IMG/VR virus record: IMGVR_UViG_3300009537_000025
Span: 1 to 47,586 of that record
Strand: one strand, 5' to 3'
Length of the DNA: 47,586 nt
Source: a virus
The stretch's first letter is position 1, and every line of letters starts with the position of its first letter. The notes under the pieces are model-generated. The model made no database searches and was not told where the DNA came from. It worked only from the letters and a program-made list of their open reading frames with translations. Position numbers and translations under genes: made by a program. Shown here in pieces: positions 4,666-25,755 of the stretch.

Positions 4666-6500
4666 TGTCCAAGTACAAATTTAAAATACAATACGGTCCG
4701 GACCAGATATTTGTCAATCCATTTGGCGATGTAACTCTCACATGGGAACAACAAGAAGGAACGAATTACTTCCGAAAGAAGCTCAGTTCCTTTACTCTGA
4801 ACATTAAAGAGCAGTATCAATTTATAAAGGATGTTGAGGAGGATGGAGATTTGTGTACAGATTTTCGTGTTATCGTAACGTCAAGATGTGATACAGAGAC
4901 AATAGTTGAATTCAACGGAACGTTCACGATCTCGGATTGTGAGTTTGATGATCATCTTTGCCAGGTCGAAATTGATCCACAACCGGATGATCCTTTTTCG
5001 TGTTTAAAAGCAAATGAGAGCAGAATTGTAAATCTGTTGGCAATAACTGATGAACAAACTGTGGATGCTGATGTACAGGATAATGTTTTCGTTTATAACG
5101 CTCCAGGCACCGAAACTGTTTTGAGAGTTCCGAACGGTGATCCTGCTCCGGATGTATCAGTACTCGCTCCTTATGTTGGTGATCCGGCTGAATTAGATTT
5201 GATAAAAATTCAGAAATTGGATCCGGATATTGGTTTGACTTATGATCATTATGTTGCGTGGGCTTATAGAAGATCAGTTCCTAAAGTTGGCTCAGGATGT
5301 CAACCAACATTATCAAGCGGATACGAGTTGATTGCTTCAAATGCCACTCATTGTTTTTATCAGAAATTACCTTCTTCAGTCGATTTTCTTGATATAGATA
5401 GGGCTAGTTGTGGCTCAGAGTTTCCAACTCCACCACCTCCGGGATGGAAACCTCCTTGGTCAGTTGATATTTGGAGTGGTGTTTGGCTCGATGAGGATCC
5501 GATTGATGGTATTTGTGTTTGGTATAGACCATTTCAGGGAACATACGACAGAGCGAGAAGATTGGATGATTGTTTGGATGCTTTTCTTTCTGATTGTGAT
5601 ATAACGGTGAAATCTGACTTCTTTCAGATCAATCCAGAGAATGTATCCGGAACGAATTATGTAACAGGAATGATATCAAGAACTGCAAACATACACTTCC
5701 TTCAGAAGTCAGATGCAATATATTTTGATTCTACCGAACCTGCAACAAACGGTAAAACGACATGGAAGGATTTCTGGGATGGGCTTTCAAAAATATTCAA
5801 CCTCGGATACACAATCGAGGACAATACGATAGTAATTGAACACATTAGCTTTTTCGACAATATTGTGTCTGTTCTTGATCTTACGCAGGATCCATACGAA
5901 AAATATATTACAGGCCAGAAGAAATACGCATATAAAAAAGAAACGCTCCCGTTCATCGAGACAATTCAACAGTCGGATTGGATAAATGAGGACTTTGAAC
6001 CAAGCCAGATCATATATGAGGGATCGAACGGAAAGAAACTCGGATGCGTTGGAGATAAGGAGGAAAATATTGCGTGGGGGATATTCACAACCGATTTGCA
6101 ATACTATCAGGAGGTTCCGGAAGGAGTTGGTTTAGATGGATGGGTTGTTCTATGTTGTGCAGTTCCGACAATGGCTACTCCTATTCCTTATGTATTTAAT
6201 GAGGTCGGGTTGAAGTCTGGGTTCAATCAGATCAATGGACATATAGCAGTAACAAATGCGGTAAATCATTATTACCTTCACGGGAGATATGCTGAGACAG
6301 GAAAGATAGATGGTGTGCAGACAGATTTTGAAACGAACATCAAAAAGAAAGAAGCGGATCCGATTGATGTTGTAATATGTTGTGAAGATCATGAATTTGA
6401 TCCTAACGAATCGATAAAAACACACCTTGGAGTTGGTAGTGTTACTGAGGCAACAAAAAACCTCAAAACAGGAAGTTTTAACTTGAAAATTGAATACTAA
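4665..6500 (+). CDS. tail tip / distal tail protein (positional)
   Basis: 611-aa ORF whose start overlaps the tape measure stop (ATG at TAATG). No motif recognised. Confidence 0.5.
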   Translation: MSKYKFKIQYGPDQIFVNPFGDVTLTWEQQEGTNYFRKKLSSFTLNIKEQYQFIKDVEEDGDLCTDFRVIVTSRCDTETIVEFNGTFTISDCEFDDHLCQVEIDPQPDDPFSCLKANESRIVNLLAITDEQTVDADVQDNVFVYNAPGTETVLRVPNGDPAPDVSVLAPYVGDPAELDLIKIQKLDPDIGLTYDHYVAWAYRRSVPKVGSGCQPTLSSGYELIASNATHCFYQKLPSSVDFLDIDRASCGSEFPTPPPPGWKPPWSVDIWSGVWLDEDPIDGICVWYRPFQGTYDRARRLDDCLDAFLSDCDITVKSDFFQINPENVSGTNYVTGMISRTANIHFLQKSDAIYFDSTEPATNGKTTWKDFWDGLSKIFNLGYTIEDNTIVIEHISFFDNIVSVLDLTQDPYEKYITGQKKYAYKKETLPFIETIQQSDWINEDFEPSQIIYEGSNGKKLGCVGDKEENIAWGIFTTDLQYYQEVPEGVGLDGWVVLCCAVPTMATPIPYVFNEVGLKSGFNQINGHIAVTNAVNHYYLHGRYAETGKIDGVQTDFETNIKKKEADPIDVVICCEDHEFDPNESIKTHLGVGSVTEATKNLKTGSFNLKIEY

Positions 6501-7993
6501 TGGATTTTGATAATCAATACGTAAGAAGATATCGGCAACACATTCCGTTTTACAAATCGGCGTTCCCTTTAGAAGATAGAAGAGTTTATTGGCACCATAG
6601 ACGTGCATTGTGTGATCAGGAATGCGTGTTCGGAATTCCTGTTGTTCAAGGTCAATTCCTAATGTTTGTTATTGAGGATAATGATTCAACTGGGATCGAT
6701 ATGGTATTTCACGGTGGATCCCAGAATTCAAGGATTGAGTTTTGTTGTATTGATCAAACTGATATTTCTGATTGTGATGATCTAACTTGGGAAAATATTC
6801 CACAAGAAACCCTTTCAACACATAAGAATTGTGTAATAGATGGGGAGTTGTTTCAGTTTCACTATATCAGAATGAAACTTCCGGACGATGCTCCTTGTGG
6901 ATTGAGATATTTCAAGTTTATCGCATACGAAGGAACATCTAATGAGCGAATATTTTACTCTGAGCCTGTTTATGTGTATGAGGATTCTAAAAGATTGTAT
7001 AAACTTAACATTAACGATCCGTGTGGAGTTGGTGGTGTAAATTGGGTTGATGTTTGGCAGGGTTGGCCTCTCAATGATGGATATGAGGTTTATCTTCCTC
7101 CGCTTACTGAGGTTGCGTTTGTTGATGAGGTTACAGAAAGCACAACAGTTGATAATGGGGACGGTGATCAGAAGCAAGTATTCGCCTCTGTTTCGTGGAG
7201 ATACCAATTCGATACTGAATTTATCCCGGAGCATTATGCTGAGATCATAAAAGAGATCACAAACACTCAGAACAATTCGATCACGTTTCCAGATAGACAG
7301 CAAGATCATTATGTAAAGATTGCGGATGCGGAAAGTGCAATATCAAGCGACGAGGACGGATGTTTCGTTCAGGTAAATATGCAATTTGAGATAAAGAGAT
7401 ATGTGGACAGGGTTTGTTGTAATGAAGCTCCTTGTCAATGTCCGCAGGATGATGCTATGACTGTCATATCTTATACCACGGACGAGTTGGATGCGGAATT
7501 GGTGTTTGGAAATACTTATATTGTTCCGGATGGAGCGGCCGGACCAAACAATCCTGCGTGGTCAGCACATCAAAATGAGATTGCCATATGGAACGGATCA
7601 GGTTGGGATTTCTCTACTTCCCCTGTCAGAACCATTGCATATGTTGAGGACGAGGAGAACTATTACATATCAATAGGCGGAGGCGGCACTTGGAGTGATA
7701 ATTTAATGATAATCACAAATGCAACTTACAATGGAGCCGGGACTTGTACCTGGACTGTTGAAGGTGTTATCCCGAACTTAACGTGGGGTAAATTACAATG
7801 GAGTGTAAGTGGTTCAGGAGTTTGGAATGATGCGGACGGTGTTTATGAAGATGCAGATGCTTGGGCTTCTGGAGTTGAGGTTTATTTACCTGCGATAAAC
7901 AATTACGATCTTCGAATTGTTCCTCTTGATATTGGTTGCGACCTTGTAAACAGTGAGGAATACGGCATATCTCAGACTGAGTCCTGTATTTAG
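6500..7993 (+). CDS. tail tip / baseplate-associated protein (positional)
   Basis: 497-aa ORF whose start overlaps the stop of the previous gene. No motif recognised. Confidence 0.45.
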   Translation: MDFDNQYVRRYRQHIPFYKSAFPLEDRRVYWHHRRALCDQECVFGIPVVQGQFLMFVIEDNDSTGIDMVFHGGSQNSRIEFCCIDQTDISDCDDLTWENIPQETLSTHKNCVIDGELFQFHYIRMKLPDDAPCGLRYFKFIAYEGTSNERIFYSEPVYVYEDSKRLYKLNINDPCGVGGVNWVDVWQGWPLNDGYEVYLPPLTEVAFVDEVTESTTVDNGDGDQKQVFASVSWRYQFDTEFIPEHYAEIIKEITNTQNNSITFPDRQQDHYVKIADAESAISSDEDGCFVQVNMQFEIKRYVDRVCCNEAPCQCPQDDAMTVISYTTDELDAELVFGNTYIVPDGAAGPNNPAWSAHQNEIAIWNGSGWDFSTSPVRTIAYVEDEENYYISIGGGGTWSDNLMIITNATYNGAGTCTWTVEGVIPNLTWGKLQWSVSGSGVWNDADGVYEDADAWASGVEVYLPAINNYDLRIVPLDIGCDLVNSEEYGISQTESCI

Positions 7994-22685: not shown

Positions 22686-23123
22686 ATGGCACTTTATAAT
22701 TTCGACAACGAATCAGACCGGGAAAAAGGCATTTCCTATTTCAAACGCCTCCTCGATCTCAGGTGCATAGTTGATCTAACGAAAAAGAAGCCTGTACGAT
22801 CTGACAACCAAAACGCATATATGCACCTAATCATTGGTTGGTTTGCAATAGAAACCGGATACTCCCCTGAGTATGTGAAGCGAGAGTTTTTCAAAATTCA
22901 TTGCAATTCTGAACTGTTCATTTACGAAAAAGTAGGTAAATTGGGGACGGTAAAGGATTTGAGGAGTTCCGCTGATCTGGACACGGCAGAAATGACAACT
23001 GCGATAAAGAGGTTCAGAAATTGGTCTGCCTCTGAAGAGGTTGGGATTTATTTGCCTGAGCCACATGAACAACAAATGCTCGAACAGATAAGAGTTGAAC
23101 TATCAAGAATTGATCACGTATGA
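22686..23123 (+). CDS. NinB/Orf-like recombination protein (tentative)
   Basis: KKKPVRSDNQNAYMHLIIGWFAIETG resembles the RSxxQN..h core recalled for NinB. Confidence 0.35.
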   Translation: MALYNFDNESDREKGISYFKRLLDLRCIVDLTKKKPVRSDNQNAYMHLIIGWFAIETGYSPEYVKREFFKIHCNSELFIYEKVGKLGTVKDLRSSADLDTAEMTTAIKRFRNWSASEEVGIYLPEPHEQQMLEQIRVELSRIDHV

Positions 23124-23863
23124 AAATAGTAGAACGAGACTTCGGAACGCATAAAATAAGATTCATTCACGCTGACAACATGGAATGGATGAAAAACCAC
23201 GTCTGCTCCACATACGATTTAGCTATTGTTGACCCTCCTTATGGAATTGGTGCCGGTAAAAACGGATTCAGTACTGTTGGAAATAATGCGGATGGACTTG
23301 CCACACGAAAAGACTATGGTGCAAAGGATTGGGATAATGCAATACCTGGTCCGGAATATTTTGAACTCCTCATGAAATCATCAAAGAATCAGATCATTTG
23401 GGGAGGCAATTATTTCATCGATCATCTTTACAACACGTCCTGTATGATCGTTTGGGATAAAGACAATGGAGAATGGTCAAACGCTGATTGTGAACTTGCA
23501 TGGACATCATTCAAGACTGCCGTTCGAAAGTTCAAATGGTTGTGGAATGGAATGCTTCAGCAAAACATGAAGAAAAAGCAAGAACGAATTCATCCAACAG
23601 AAAAACCTATTGAATTATACGAATGGCTTTTAATGAAATACGCTAAACCAGGACAAACGATCTTAGATACTCACGGCGGATCCGGATCGATTGCAATAGC
23701 CTGTCACCGGATGAAATTTGATCTTGATATCGTAGAATTGGATGAGGAATATTTTGAGAACATGATCAAGCGATTTGACGAACAACCAGAAAGCCGCCGA
23801 ATTGAAAAGGATGGTAAAGTTTCTACAGAAGTACAAACCAACATATTTGACCAAGGAGCATGA
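23120..23863 (+). CDS. DNA N6-adenine/N4-cytosine methyltransferase (beta class)
   Basis: The IVDPPYGIG catalytic motif lies N-terminal and the LDTHGGSGSIAIAC SAM-binding motif lies C-terminal. Confidence 0.8.
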   Translation: MKIVERDFGTHKIRFIHADNMEWMKNHVCSTYDLAIVDPPYGIGAGKNGFSTVGNNADGLATRKDYGAKDWDNAIPGPEYFELLMKSSKNQIIWGGNYFIDHLYNTSCMIVWDKDNGEWSNADCELAWTSFKTAVRKFKWLWNGMLQQNMKKKQERIHPTEKPIELYEWLLMKYAKPGQTILDTHGGSGSIAIACHRMKFDLDIVELDEEYFENMIKRFDEQPESRRIEKDGKVSTEVQTNIFDQGA

Positions 23864-24741
23864 AACACGCACCATTATTTGCCGGAATTAATGGATTCGG
23901 TTTAGCGGCTGAAGAAATGGAGTGGGATCAACAATTTCATTGTGAGATAGATGAATTTTGCCAAAAAATAATACAATATTATTGGCCACAATCAAAACCA
24001 TATTATGACATTAGACAAACAGATTTCACTATTTGGAGAGGACTCATCGATGTCCTCTCAGGAGGATTCCCTTGCCAACCATACAGTCAGGCAGGAAAAA
24101 GACTTGGAAAAGAGGATGACAGACACCTCTGGCCGGAAATGCTTAGAGCAGTTCGAGAAATTCAACCGCCATGGGTTGTGGGCGAAAACGTTCGCGGCCT
24201 TACTAATTGGAATGGAGGGTTGGTATTCGACGAAGTGCAGGCTGATTTGGAAGCTGAAGGCTACGAAGTCACACCGTTTTTACTTCCAGCTTGCGCCGTC
24301 AACGCTCCCCACAGACGGGATAGAATCTGGTTTGTGGCCTACAATAACAGCAGTTCAAAGAGGAAATCCGGAAAAAATGAGAAAGCTGAAGGAAAAGGGA
24401 CTTCCTCTTCAGAGCAGGGAACTAGGGGACGGATCGAGACAGTTCTCAATTCTGGATTATGCGGAATATCACGGTCTACTTCCGACGCCACAAGCGGCAG
24501 ACGGATTCAAGACTACGAGCAATTCTGGTCAGAAAAACTTAAATGTTTTAGCTCCGGTTGGGAGTGGTTCCCAACTCAATCCCCAATTTGTAGCGGAAAT
24601 GATGGGATTTCCTCCAAACTGGACGGAATTACCTTTCCTAAATGGAGAGCAGAATCAATCAAAGCCTACGGAAACGCAATAGTTCCACAGGTAGCACTTC
24701 AAATATTTAAAGCAATTCAAGAATATGAAAATTTACGTTAG
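23860..24741 (+). CDS. DNA cytosine-5 methyltransferase (short form, frame 0)
   Basis: FAGINGFG (motif I-like), CEID, GGFPCQPYS (24061-24087), ENVRGL (24184-24201), HRRDRIWF (24310-24333), YGNAIVPQV (24667-24693). Confidence 0.85.
   Translation: MKHAPLFAGINGFGLAAEEMEWDQQFHCEIDEFCQKIIQYYWPQSKPYYDIRQTDFTIWRGLIDVLSGGFPCQPYSQAGKRLGKEDDRHLWPEMLRAVREIQPPWVVGENVRGLTNWNGGLVFDEVQADLEAEGYEVTPFLLPACAVNAPHRRDRIWFVAYNNSSSKRKSGKNEKAEGKGTSSSEQGTRGRIETVLNSGLCGISRSTSDATSGRRIQDYEQFWSEKLKCFSSGWEWFPTQSPICSGNDGISSKLDGITFPKWRAESIKAYGNAIVPQVALQIFKAIQEYENLR
24005..24682 (+). CDS. nested +1-frame ORF (225 codons) inside the C5-MTase gene; reads like the long C-terminal/TRD region of other C5-MTases
   Basis: The frame is open from 23972 to 24682. 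It contains SGRKC, GWYSTKCRLIWKLKATK, FQLAPSTLPT, LWPT, LLPTPQAADG and LNPQFVAEMMGFPPNWT. It is more than 3 times longer than any other same-strand alternative-frame ORF in the track. Confidence 0.5.
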   Translation: MTLDKQISLFGEDSSMSSQEDSLANHTVRQEKDLEKRMTDTSGRKCLEQFEKFNRHGLWAKTFAALLIGMEGWYSTKCRLIWKLKATKSHRFYFQLAPSTLPTDGIESGLWPTITAVQRGNPEKMRKLKEKGLPLQSRELGDGSRQFSILDYAEYHGLLPTPQAADGFKTTSNSGQKNLNVLAPVGSGSQLNPQFVAEMMGFPPNWTELPFLNGEQNQSKPTETQ

Positions 24742-25036
24742 TGGAAAAATAACCGGGCTTGATCTCGAAGTAGCACATCAAAATTTCGATGTCGGTGTCC
24801 AGTATTTAAAAGCACAGGGATTTGAACCTATCAATCCGATGGACTTAGTGCCTTATCATCCGGACCTAACCTGGAAGGATTACATGAGAGCCGATATAAA
24901 AGCCCTATGCGATTGCGACGGGATACTTATGATCTCAGGTTGGAGAAAATCGAAAGGAGCGAAACTTGAACGACACATTGCGAAATCGCTTGGACTTAAT
25001 ATCATGTATCTACACACAAACGCAATAAAAGTTTAA
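24725..25036 (+). CDS. DUF4406 / nucleoside 2-deoxyribosyltransferase-like protein
   Basis: MKIYVSGKITG...INPMDL...DYMRADIKALCDCDGILMISGWRKSKGAKLERHIA matches the DUF4406 pattern (recollection). Confidence 0.55.
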   Translation: MKIYVSGKITGLDLEVAHQNFDVGVQYLKAQGFEPINPMDLVPYHPDLTWKDYMRADIKALCDCDGILMISGWRKSKGAKLERHIAKSLGLNIMYLHTNAIKV

Positions 25037-25099: not shown

Positions 25100-25354
25100 A
25101 TGGGAACAGTAAAAATAGTAAGATTCCGAAGTGATAAAGGTAAAGTGTCTGAACTTCGGTTTGTAGGTGAAAATCCGACCAAGGTTAACACGTCGATCTG
25201 GATTGATATTGAATCTGGAGAACCTCTGAACATACCAAACGACCGTATGGATGACAAATATGAGTTTTATCACACTCTGAAGGATGCTCAGTCTCATGCG
25301 GCTAAATGGCACGAAACACAAGCGAAAATTTTAATCAATAAAATATCATCATGA
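25100..25354 (+). CDS. hypothetical protein
   Basis: 84-aa ORF overlapping ssb at ATGA. Confidence 0.65.
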   Translation: MGTVKIVRFRSDKGKVSELRFVGENPTKVNTSIWIDIESGEPLNIPNDRMDDKYEFYHTLKDAQSHAAKWHETQAKILINKISS

Positions 25355-25755
25355 ACAGTTTAAACTCAGTACACCTGATCGGCAACATCGGTCAGGATCC
25401 GGAAATCATTAATTTTGATAACGGACACAAACTCGCAAAGGTCAGTCTGGCCACGTCGAGAACTTATAAGAACGCACAAGGCGAAAAAATCCAAGATACC
25501 GATTGGCATAATGTCATTTTCTGGAATAAAGCCGCAGAACTCGTTGAAAAGTATCTGAAGCAAGGGTCAAAGATTGCCGTTGTCGGTGAGATCAAGTACT
25601 CCTCTTATGAGACAAAAGAAGGCGAAAAGCGATATCGAACTGATATCCACGGACGAAATCTTGTGTTTTTAGATAAAAAGGATTCAAGTCAATCCGGACC
25701 AAGTGATAATCCAGACACCTTTGTTGCTGAGGGTGACGACGATTTACCTTTTTAA
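25351..25755 (+). CDS. ssb: single-stranded DNA-binding protein
   Basis: OB-fold N-terminus (VHLIGNIGQDPEI...TDWHNVIFW) and an acidic tail ending DDDLPF. Confidence 0.9.
   Translation: MNSLNSVHLIGNIGQDPEIINFDNGHKLAKVSLATSRTYKNAQGEKIQDTDWHNVIFWNKAAELVEKYLKQGSKIAVVGEIKYSSYETKEGEKRYRTDIHGRNLVFLDKKDSSQSGPSDNPDTFVAEGDDDLPF

Follow-up and report, generated by a model that had tools for sequence, protein, structure and literature searches.

A nested reading frame within a phage 'short Dcm' gene probably encodes the second subunit of a C5-cytosine DNA methyltransferase

The virus record IMGVR_UViG_3300009537_000025 of IMG/VR (positions 1 to 47,586; this whole stretch of 47,586 nucleotides is referred to as the window) contains a gene for a short Dcm-type C5-cytosine DNA methyltransferase (C5-MTase). 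A second open reading frame (ORF) lies wholly inside this gene, shifted by one base (frame +1). We designate the product of the longer frame (frame 0) as α and that of the nested frame as β. We propose that this one DNA stretch probably encodes two proteins that together form a single C5-MTase. As judged from the motifs, motif IX is absent from α and present in the predicted β protein, and this pattern recurs across phages of distant hosts. Both frames are kept open far beyond chance, and in the overlap the choice of synonymous codons in α follows the needs of β.

Results

Two predicted proteins encoded in one gene

Frame 0 contains the signature motifs of C5-MTases (FAGINGFG for motif I, GGFPCQPYS for IV, GENVRGL for VI and HRRDRIWFVAY for VIII). 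The match of α to PF00145 (E = 5.9e-43) is restricted to profile positions 2-216 of 324, and that to TIGR00675 (116.9 bits, over the cut-off of 100.65) to positions 4-172 of 329. Thousands of database proteins match α from end to end at 60-67% identity. In alignments of 18 and of 74 homologues, motifs I-VIII are almost invariant and the tail W..FPTQSPIC.G[ND]DG[LIFV][SP]..LDGITFPKWR.ESIKA.GNAIVPQV is nearly so; the stretch from motif VIII to this tail is hypervariable, of low complexity, and ranges from near-absent to ~250 residues. The AlphaFold model of α is confident for residues 1-165 and 272-293, with a predicted local distance difference test (pLDDT) score of 93-95 in the motif X helix, and has pLDDT <50 at residues 169-248 and 258-271. 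Foldseek aligned this model with M.HhaI (2uz4_A, E = 1.8e-13) over only ~166-170 columns, corresponding to the large domain. The hypervariability and low predicted confidence of the region between motifs VIII and X would speak against a target-recognition domain (TRD) at this place in α.

The β protein was matched by 1271 database proteins (E ≤ 0.01). Among the best 120 listed matches none has a Pfam domain, and those with names are called hypothetical. A profile built from these 120 proteins finds 18,025 clusters at 50% identity. Queried with the +1 protein or its profile, Pfam, NCBIfam and PDB sequences returned no significant match, and phrog_1008 ('DNA methyltransferase', E = 2e-21) was the sole family to match. 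β and its relatives have a conserved N-terminal region (SGRKCLEQF..GLWAKTF..WYS.KC.L.WKLK.TK..R.YFQL), followed by one to ten (G)(L/M)LPTP.A.D modules (median 3) with insertions and deletions between them, and by a C-terminal motif IX. Tryptic peptides specific for β would be expected, for example, from NLNVLAPVGSGSQLNPQFVAEMMGFPPNWTELPF. Sets of 21 and of 120 proteins matching the +1 ORF show hardly any variation in the strings GLLPTP.A.D and SQLNP.FV.EMMGFPP.WTELPF. Most β homologues have a Met directly ahead of the conserved (K/T)TS.KQISLF. The start of β is putative; the candidates include the ATGs at 24005 (M1), 24050 and 24116 (M38), among others.

The coordinates of the locus are listed in Table 1. 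Reading back the sequence reproduced the strings on which the preliminary description of this locus was built, that is, ATG ATG GGA TTT CCT CCA AAC TGG ACG (MMGFPPNWT) at 24599-24625 in frame +1, NDGISSKLD at 24598-24624 and GNAIVPQV at 24670-24693 in frame 0, and the +1 stop codon TAG at 24680-24682. The sole slip in its coordinates concerned QEDSLAN, the +1 reading over motif IV, which is located at 24059-24079, one codon before the 24062-24082 given there.

Table 1. Features of the α/β locus in the window (nucleotide positions of the window)
Feature	Position	Strand	Description
α gene	23860..24741	+	frame 0, 293 aa; C5-MTase large domain with motifs I-VIII, non-conserved linker, motif X
β gene	24005..24682	+	frame +1, 225 aa, nested ORF; N-terminal domain, LLPTP modules, motif IX
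Doubly constrained overlap	24005..24342	+	α catalytic core (motifs IV-VIII) over β N-terminal domain
α motif IV, GGFPCQPYS	24061..24087	+	same bases in β: (Q)EDSLAN(H)
α motif VI, GENVRGL	24181..24201	+	same bases in β: (W)AKTF
α motif VIII, HRRDRIWFVAY	24310..24342	+	overlaps the first LPTP-like module of β, GLWPTITA (24329-24352)
Central stretch	24343..24567	+	β: helices and the GLLPTPQAAD module (24473-24502); α: low-complexity linker (NNSSSKRKSGKNEK...), open, non-conserved
β motif IX, LNPQFVAEMMGFPPNWT	24575..24625	+	frame +1; frame-0 reading of the same bases: TQSPICSGNDGISSKLD
α PKWRAESIKAY-GNAIVPQV (motif X)	24637..24693	+	frame 0; β tail LNGEQNQSKPTETQ* unconstrained

Motif X thus belongs to frame 0, and motif IX occurs in the +1 ORF only. 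The two are nevertheless arranged colinearly with a canonical single-chain enzyme and at normal spacing, with an offset of one base, which fits descent from a single-frame ancestor. When the motif IX part of β was joined to the motif X part of α, the resulting peptide matched PF00145 at positions 273-323 (E = 3.8e-4); the frame-0 tail alone had no match to this profile. The best match of the joined peptide in the PDB was weak (E = 0.35) and fell on the C-terminus of the prophage CP-933R methylase 3g7u (residues 319-364), where LNPQFVAEMMGFPPNWTELPFPKWRAESIKAYGNAIVPQV is aligned with ITPREAARLQGFP-DWFRFHVTKWH--SFRQIGNSVSPIV. A repaired chimera (α core, TRD and motif IX of β, motif X of α) was also used as a query. 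No single-frame relative was present among its 8000 best candidates; the best match was the window's own α, and nothing scored above α-type proteins.

Both frames are kept open

For the analysis of frame openness, 80 related IMG/VR loci were reduced to 73 distinct genes. The +1 frame is open over >150 codons in all 73, with a median of 254 codons or 79% of the gene. If the codons are shuffled synonymously with the frame-0 protein retained, only ~91 codons stay open, and for 65 of the 73 genes the observed length exceeds that of each of 200 shuffles. No such excess is seen in the +2 frame (37 codons vs 44 in its shuffles).

The reciprocal experiment was performed on the central stretch by shuffling codons that are synonymous in frame +1. 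Here 3.58 frame-0 stop codons are expected per gene, and 143 over 40 genes; none was observed. Frame 0 remained open in only 3.2% of these shuffles. At the same time, in 577 of 600 gene pairs conservation within the central stretch is higher for the +1 peptide than for that of frame 0. These comparisons show that the openness of frame 0 in the centre is selected without conservation of its predicted amino acid sequence.

Selection at the codon level

As a measure of constraint we took the normalised entropy at the third codon position of conserved residues in frame 0, compared with the non-overlapped parts by the Mann-Whitney test. It is 0.80 both before the +1 ORF (α codons 3-50) and after the +1 stop (α codons 261-290). 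In the overlap over motifs IV-VIII (α codons 54-161) it drops to 0.58, with 12 of 88 sites below 0.2 (p = 9e-6), and in the motif IX overlap (α codons 237-259) to 0.12, being zero or near zero at most codons (p = 1e-10). The frozen wobble positions of frame 0 supply W59, F63, I68, S75, C78 and W82 of β. For example, the wobbles of α V107 (GTG) and V111 (GTT) are frozen and give β W59 and F63, and entropy is zero at the codons giving I68, S75, C78 and W82. Taken together, codon usage shows that the predicted +1 protein is at present under strong purifying selection.

In the central stretch, the third positions of frame +1 are free (0.57-1.0) at the conserved LLPTP residues. β evolves there as an ordinary single-coded gene, and frame 0 is without information. 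Over motif IX, too, most +1 wobbles are free, except at S200, Q201, F206, L220 and P221 (numbering of the open +1 stretch; S189, Q190, F195, L209 and P210 if counted from the ATG at 24005). These exceptions imply that P238, T239, C244, T258 and F259 of α are under a constraint of their own. Within the conserved frame-0 string, only F-P-T, C and T-F are thus constrained in their own right, and the rest, ..DG[LIFV][SP]..LD, is mostly a passive shadow of the +1 motif MMGFP..WT.

This is in line with the codon argument of the preliminary description, according to which the frame-0 string is what MMGFPxxWT becomes when it is read one base earlier. Indeed, MMGFPxxWT read in this way gives [ND]DG[LIFV][SP]x[KR]LD, and FPTQSPIC arises likewise from SQLNPxFV. 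The variation tolerated in frame 0 tracks what the +1 codons allow, since RAT gives N or D, NTT gives L, I, F or V, and YCC gives S or P. The motifs that had been named for this family also proved to be family-conserved, the frame-0 tail in the 18 and 74 homologues and the +1 strings in the 21 and 120 proteins mentioned above.

Shadows can be cast in the other direction too. The β tail LNGE.NQSK..TQ (24638-24679) seems conserved in protein alignments, but it is a mere shadow of α KWR.ESIKA.GNA, because the wobble positions of frame 0 are free over this part. Caution is therefore advisable when conservation is read from called +1 ORFs.

It had been suggested that a canonical order of motifs IX and X would need a -1 shift between 24626 and 24669. 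A single chain could in principle be produced by two programmed ribosomal frameshifts, from frame 0 to +1 after motif VIII and back to frame 0 between motifs IX and X (~24626-24669). The order I-VIII, TRD-IX, X would then be canonical, and the spacing of IX and X is canonical already but for one base. We regard this as very improbable, and no such shift is needed to account for the locus. The +1 frame has no X_XXY_YYZ heptamer at 24590-24690, and the predicted RNA fold of 24626-24745 is not significant (z = -0.69). Selection holds frame 0 open in the centre, and frameshifting would have no need of this. Furthermore, the +1 ORF reaches ~110 codons upstream of motif VIII, with a conserved Met and selected residues of its own, and RIWFVAY of motif VIII shares its bases with the first GLLPTP module, so that a shift at this place would lose one of the two. 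A formal -1 slippery heptamer, A_AAA_AAT, is found in frame 0 at 24372-24378, but it leads into the closed +2 frame and is probably meaningless.

Distribution of the nested gene

A tblastn search with the +1 protein retrieved 86 phage records, and all inspected matches were in frame +1 of an annotated short C5-MTase gene. The same nested ORF is present in seven cultured phages of five host groups. It is annotated as 'g55 internal gene' in Paenibacillus phage Shelly (SHELLY_56) and as 'Mte8-like protein' in the E. coli phages K1H (ORF28) and fKuEco01, and it lies in the same way within the short C5-MTase gene of Lacticaseibacillus phage R9.1, Bacteroides phage BKO1-TP3, Synechococcus phage S-H1 and Klebsiella phage Salado. 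The arrangement thus persists at 27-37% identity in phages of Firmicutes, Proteobacteria, Cyanobacteria and Bacteroidota. In the literature searched, we came across neither a study of the nested ORF nor a function ascribed to it. The frame-0 tails of cultured phages (ADGVPNRLDRIKALGNAVVPQ, ANGIPARVGRLRGYGNAIVPQV and GDDGLSNRVDRLKALGNAVVPQV) are again shadows of the +1 motifs WLMGYPIGWT, WLMGYPPEW and EMMGFPIGWT; the DG.P.R.D motif named for short phage Dcm proteins is therefore real and at the same time explained.

The preliminary description had also proposed to compare cross-frame similarity with shuffled controls. To this end, the +1 translations of six cultured-phage genes were scored against a hidden Markov model (HMM) of β, together with synonymous shuffles of the same genes (mean ± standard deviation). 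The scores were 116.7 bits for Shelly (shuffles 26.1 ± 9.4), 36.2 for K1H (1.4 ± 4.1), 114.0 for R9.1 (44.3 ± 11.8), 191.9 for BKO1-TP3 (61.4 ± 15.4), 48.9 for S-H1 (1.7 ± 5.5) and 37.0 for Salado (4.5 ± 6.9). The real translations thus span 36-192 bits and the shuffle means 1-61 bits, and no shuffle reached the real score in any of the six genes.

These controls bear on the idea that the +1 reading is a relic of evolution or a side effect of a conserved frame 0. A conserved frame-0 protein does fix much of the +1 frame, as is evident from shuffles that still score 1-61 bits and leave ~91 codons open. Nevertheless, such an origin is highly unlikely and, within the reach of sequence analysis, refuted: the real genes exceed their shuffles in HMM score and, in 65 of the 73 genes, in +1 length, the synonymous sites are frozen only within the overlap, the centre conserves the +1 protein and not frame 0, and the pattern persists at low identity across phages of four phyla. 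Frameshift errors in sequencing or assembly, or a pseudogene, can be practically dismissed as well, as 73 metagenomic genes, independent of each other, and the finished genomes of cultured phages have the identical frame relation, and frame 0 forms a full-length ORF for which thousands of homologues of full length exist.

The earlier interpretation holds in part. Both readings are present in this phage, as had been stated, but this is no peculiarity of it, as every relative examined has both, and the +1 reading is not a fossil, being under purifying selection. It had further been suggested that one of two C-terminal architectures of the family arose from the other by frameshift or overprinting. 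Disruption of the frame of a colinear ancestor is plausible; we found nothing to indicate that two alternative classes of enzyme exist. The LLPTP and LNP..MGFP..WT strings lie, in every relative examined, on a separate gene that is nested inside the short Dcm gene and has a conserved ATG of its own.

Variant relatives

In one relative (L088; 2823-3428 and 3001-4983, P0243), α comprises 201 aa and ends shortly past motif VIII, overlapped by a +1 ORF of 660 aa. The latter contains ~ten LLPTP modules, MMGFPPDW (motif IX) and then FPTQSP..ISFPKHRNESIKAYGNAICPQV (motif X), all in one frame. Since α ends after motif VIII and motif X is in the +1 ORF, translation of the +1 ORF would be needed for the enzyme to have a motif X.

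In a second relative (L089; 2278-2787, P0017), an HNH_3 (PF13392) endonuclease is encoded by an insertion of 510 nt, located precisely within the motif IX site that is coded in both frames. The insertion is in frame with α; frame 0 reads DGLSSR|HNH|LDGITF and frame +1 reads MMGFPPD|stops|WTELPF. A search for group I introns with the Rfam intron families gave no match to it. Possible explanations are an intron, insertion of a homing endonuclease in frame, or loss of β.

Streptococcus phage 5093 (NC_012753; 6067-7026 of locus L090) possesses a complete C5-MTase encoded as a single chain, in which motifs IX and X share one frame. The gene has an open +1 stretch of 143 codons over motifs IV-VIII (6212-6640), and none of 200 shuffles was as long. 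Against the β HMM, this +1 ORF showed no similarity above shuffles (1.9 vs 0.2 ± 3.0 bits). Long +1 ORFs over the C5-MTase core may thus be a wider phenomenon.

Genomic context

Directly upstream of α, a gene for an N6/N4 DNA methyltransferase (PF01555, E = 1e-15) is located at 23120-23863, and its stop codon overlaps the α start (ATGA, 23860-23863). The phage therefore has two adjacent methylases. Downstream, a DUF4406 gene (24725-25036) begins 17 nt ahead of the α stop and is followed by an SSB gene (25351-25755), which places the C5-MTase in a tightly packed replication module on the + strand.

Discussion

We suggest the following organisation of the enzyme. α would be the catalytic large domain (motifs I-VIII) binding S-adenosylmethionine, continued by a disordered linker of arbitrary sequence and by the helix of motif X, which would fold back on the large domain. 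β would be translated independently in frame +1 from its own ATG and would supply what α lacks, namely motif IX, the variable number of (G)(L/M)LPTP.A.D modules upstream of it and an N-terminal β-hairpin domain; together, these parts probably represent the small, target-recognition domain. Ribosomes translating α would have to cross the DNA of the β modules, so that frame 0 is kept free of stop codons there, with amino acids that appear to be meaningless. From the data above we infer that α and β are both made and associate. β presumably carries the specificity, and the arrangement appears to have arisen from a colinear I-VIII/TRD/IX/X ancestor via a pair of frame changes. A gene overprinted de novo should have a product without homology to older families, and the C-terminus of β is a canonical motif IX. 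For the N-terminal 110 aa of β, which have no detectable relatives outside nested ORFs and no known domain in Pfam, NCBIfam and PDB-sequence searches, a de novo origin is possible.

Several points weigh against a two-subunit enzyme of this kind. Translation of β and the α-β complex are predictions for the phage of the window. AlphaFold modelling of β alone gave a weak result (pLDDT 59.8, predicted template modelling score 0.33), Foldseek of this model against the PDB returned noise only (best E = 3.3), and no solved structure was matched when the β profile was compared with PDB sequences. With a weak fold and no Foldseek match, β is assigned as the small domain from its motif IX and its position, not from its fold. 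No Shine-Dalgarno-like signal was seen for the β start. The occurrence of relatives in phages of Bacteroides and Porphyromonas suggests a host among the Bacteroidota, and such hosts seldom use these signals; the nested ATGs of Firmicutes and E. coli phages have only weak or badly spaced GGAGG-like strings, which we do not use as evidence. The HNH insertion of L089 breaks the +1 ORF and not α, and at least one relative may thus live without an intact β, unless the insert is spliced. Finally, in M.EcoHK31I, a known enzyme of nested design, the TRD has been placed in α and only motif IX in β (PMC2836561; PMC3404938).

It is also conceivable that β is real and selected and yet no methylase subunit, but e.g. 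a regulator, an anti-restriction factor or a DNA-binding protein sharing the DNA with α. Selection on the +1 protein is documented, its partnership with α is putative, the N-terminal 110 residues match no known domain, and phage 5093 has its 143-codon +1 ORF over motifs IV-VIII despite a complete single-chain enzyme. We nevertheless consider this explanation unlikely. β ends in precisely the canonical motif IX that is missing from α, and at the canonical distance from motif X of α. In L088, the +1 ORF carries motif X as well. M.EcoHK31I demonstrates that a nested design works as a heterodimer, and the +1 ORF of phage 5093 has no similarity to β above shuffles.

A broader rule can be put forward tentatively, with somewhat less than even confidence: the short Dcm of phages would in general be a two-genes-in-one locus, with the specificity in the +1 protein (1 to 10 LLPTP modules), with the variable region of α as read-through filler, and with >100 codons in which the catalytic core (motifs IV-VIII) and the N-terminal domain of β are both under purifying selection, in phages of several bacterial phyla. 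If true, these regions would be among the longest and most widespread out-of-frame dual-coding regions in double-stranded DNA phages, and the textbook assignment of the TRD to α in M.EcoHK31I-type enzymes would need revisiting.

There are consequences for annotation. Gene callers usually give α only, and thousands of phage 'Dcm' genes are thus annotated as complete though they are without motif IX. The nested partner, where it is called, is mostly a 'hypothetical protein' or nameless, and no Pfam or NCBIfam model exists for it. The DG.P.R.D string before GNA.VPQ, by which short phage Dcm proteins are recognised, is for the most part a shadow cast by the motif of another protein and not a structural element of α. 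The locus also offers a clean natural test case for overlapping genes, as it combines single-coded, doubly constrained, open-but-meaningless and shadow segments with codon-sharp boundaries. A methylase that is split by nature and has a recognition subunit built of modules is furthermore of interest for targeted methylation, for which M.EcoHK31I has been used (PMC2836561).

Comparison with known C5-methyltransferases

Arrangements of this kind are already known from M.EcoHK31I, from M.AquI, from the nested ORFs of some GenBank phages and from a remark on Streptococcus phages (PMC5601072). The breadth of the family (18,025 protein clusters), the codon-level map of selected and shadow segments and the likely placement of the recognition modules in β appear to be unreported, and we found no paper treating the nested-β family as a whole.

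The canonical monomers M.HhaI and 3g7u share with α the large-domain fold and motifs I-VIII as well as X, and motif IX of 3g7u, ITPREAARLQGFPDW, corresponds to LNPxFxxEMMGFPxxW of β. In contrast to the window locus, these enzymes keep the small domain and motif IX within one chain and one frame.

The closest known architecture is that of M.EcoHK31I, reportedly described by Lee, Kam and Shaw in 1995. In this enzyme of E. coli HK31 (recognition sequence YGGCCR), the β chain is encoded entirely inside α in another frame and starts from internal ATGs, several of which are usable; α contains motifs I-VIII along with X, β contains motif IX, and both are needed (PMC2836561; PMC3404938). The window has the same partition of motifs, and its β ORF (24005-24682) is likewise nested completely within α (23860-24741), in frame +1. 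The likeness considered here is one of architecture. In contrast to M.EcoHK31I, the spacer between motifs VIII and X in α of the window is hypervariable, of low complexity and predicted to be disordered, and the conserved LLPTP modules are in β. As a further difference, β of the window shares its DNA with the catalytic core (motifs IV-VIII), where both frames are under selection.

M.AquI is said to have been described by Karreman and de Waard in 1990, and its two ORFs reportedly overlap in different frames. It recognises CYCGRG and is a two-subunit C5-methyltransferase split in the variable region (PMC3404938). L088 resembles it, with motifs I-VIII in α and with the modules, IX and X in the +1 ORF. 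The window differs from M.AquI in having motif X on α and a β that is fully nested, not running past the end of α.

Overlapping C5-MTase reading frames have been remarked on in S. thermophilus 5093-group phages, with citation of the pneumococcal phage MM1 and Tn5252 (PMC5601072). Phage 5093 differs from the window in that its enzyme is a monomer with motifs IX and X in frame and its +1 ORF extends over motifs IV-VIII only, without detectable relation to β. SHELLY_56 of phage Shelly and ORF28 of phage K1H are recorded as annotation only and share with the window both the +1 nesting and a homologous product (27-37% identity).

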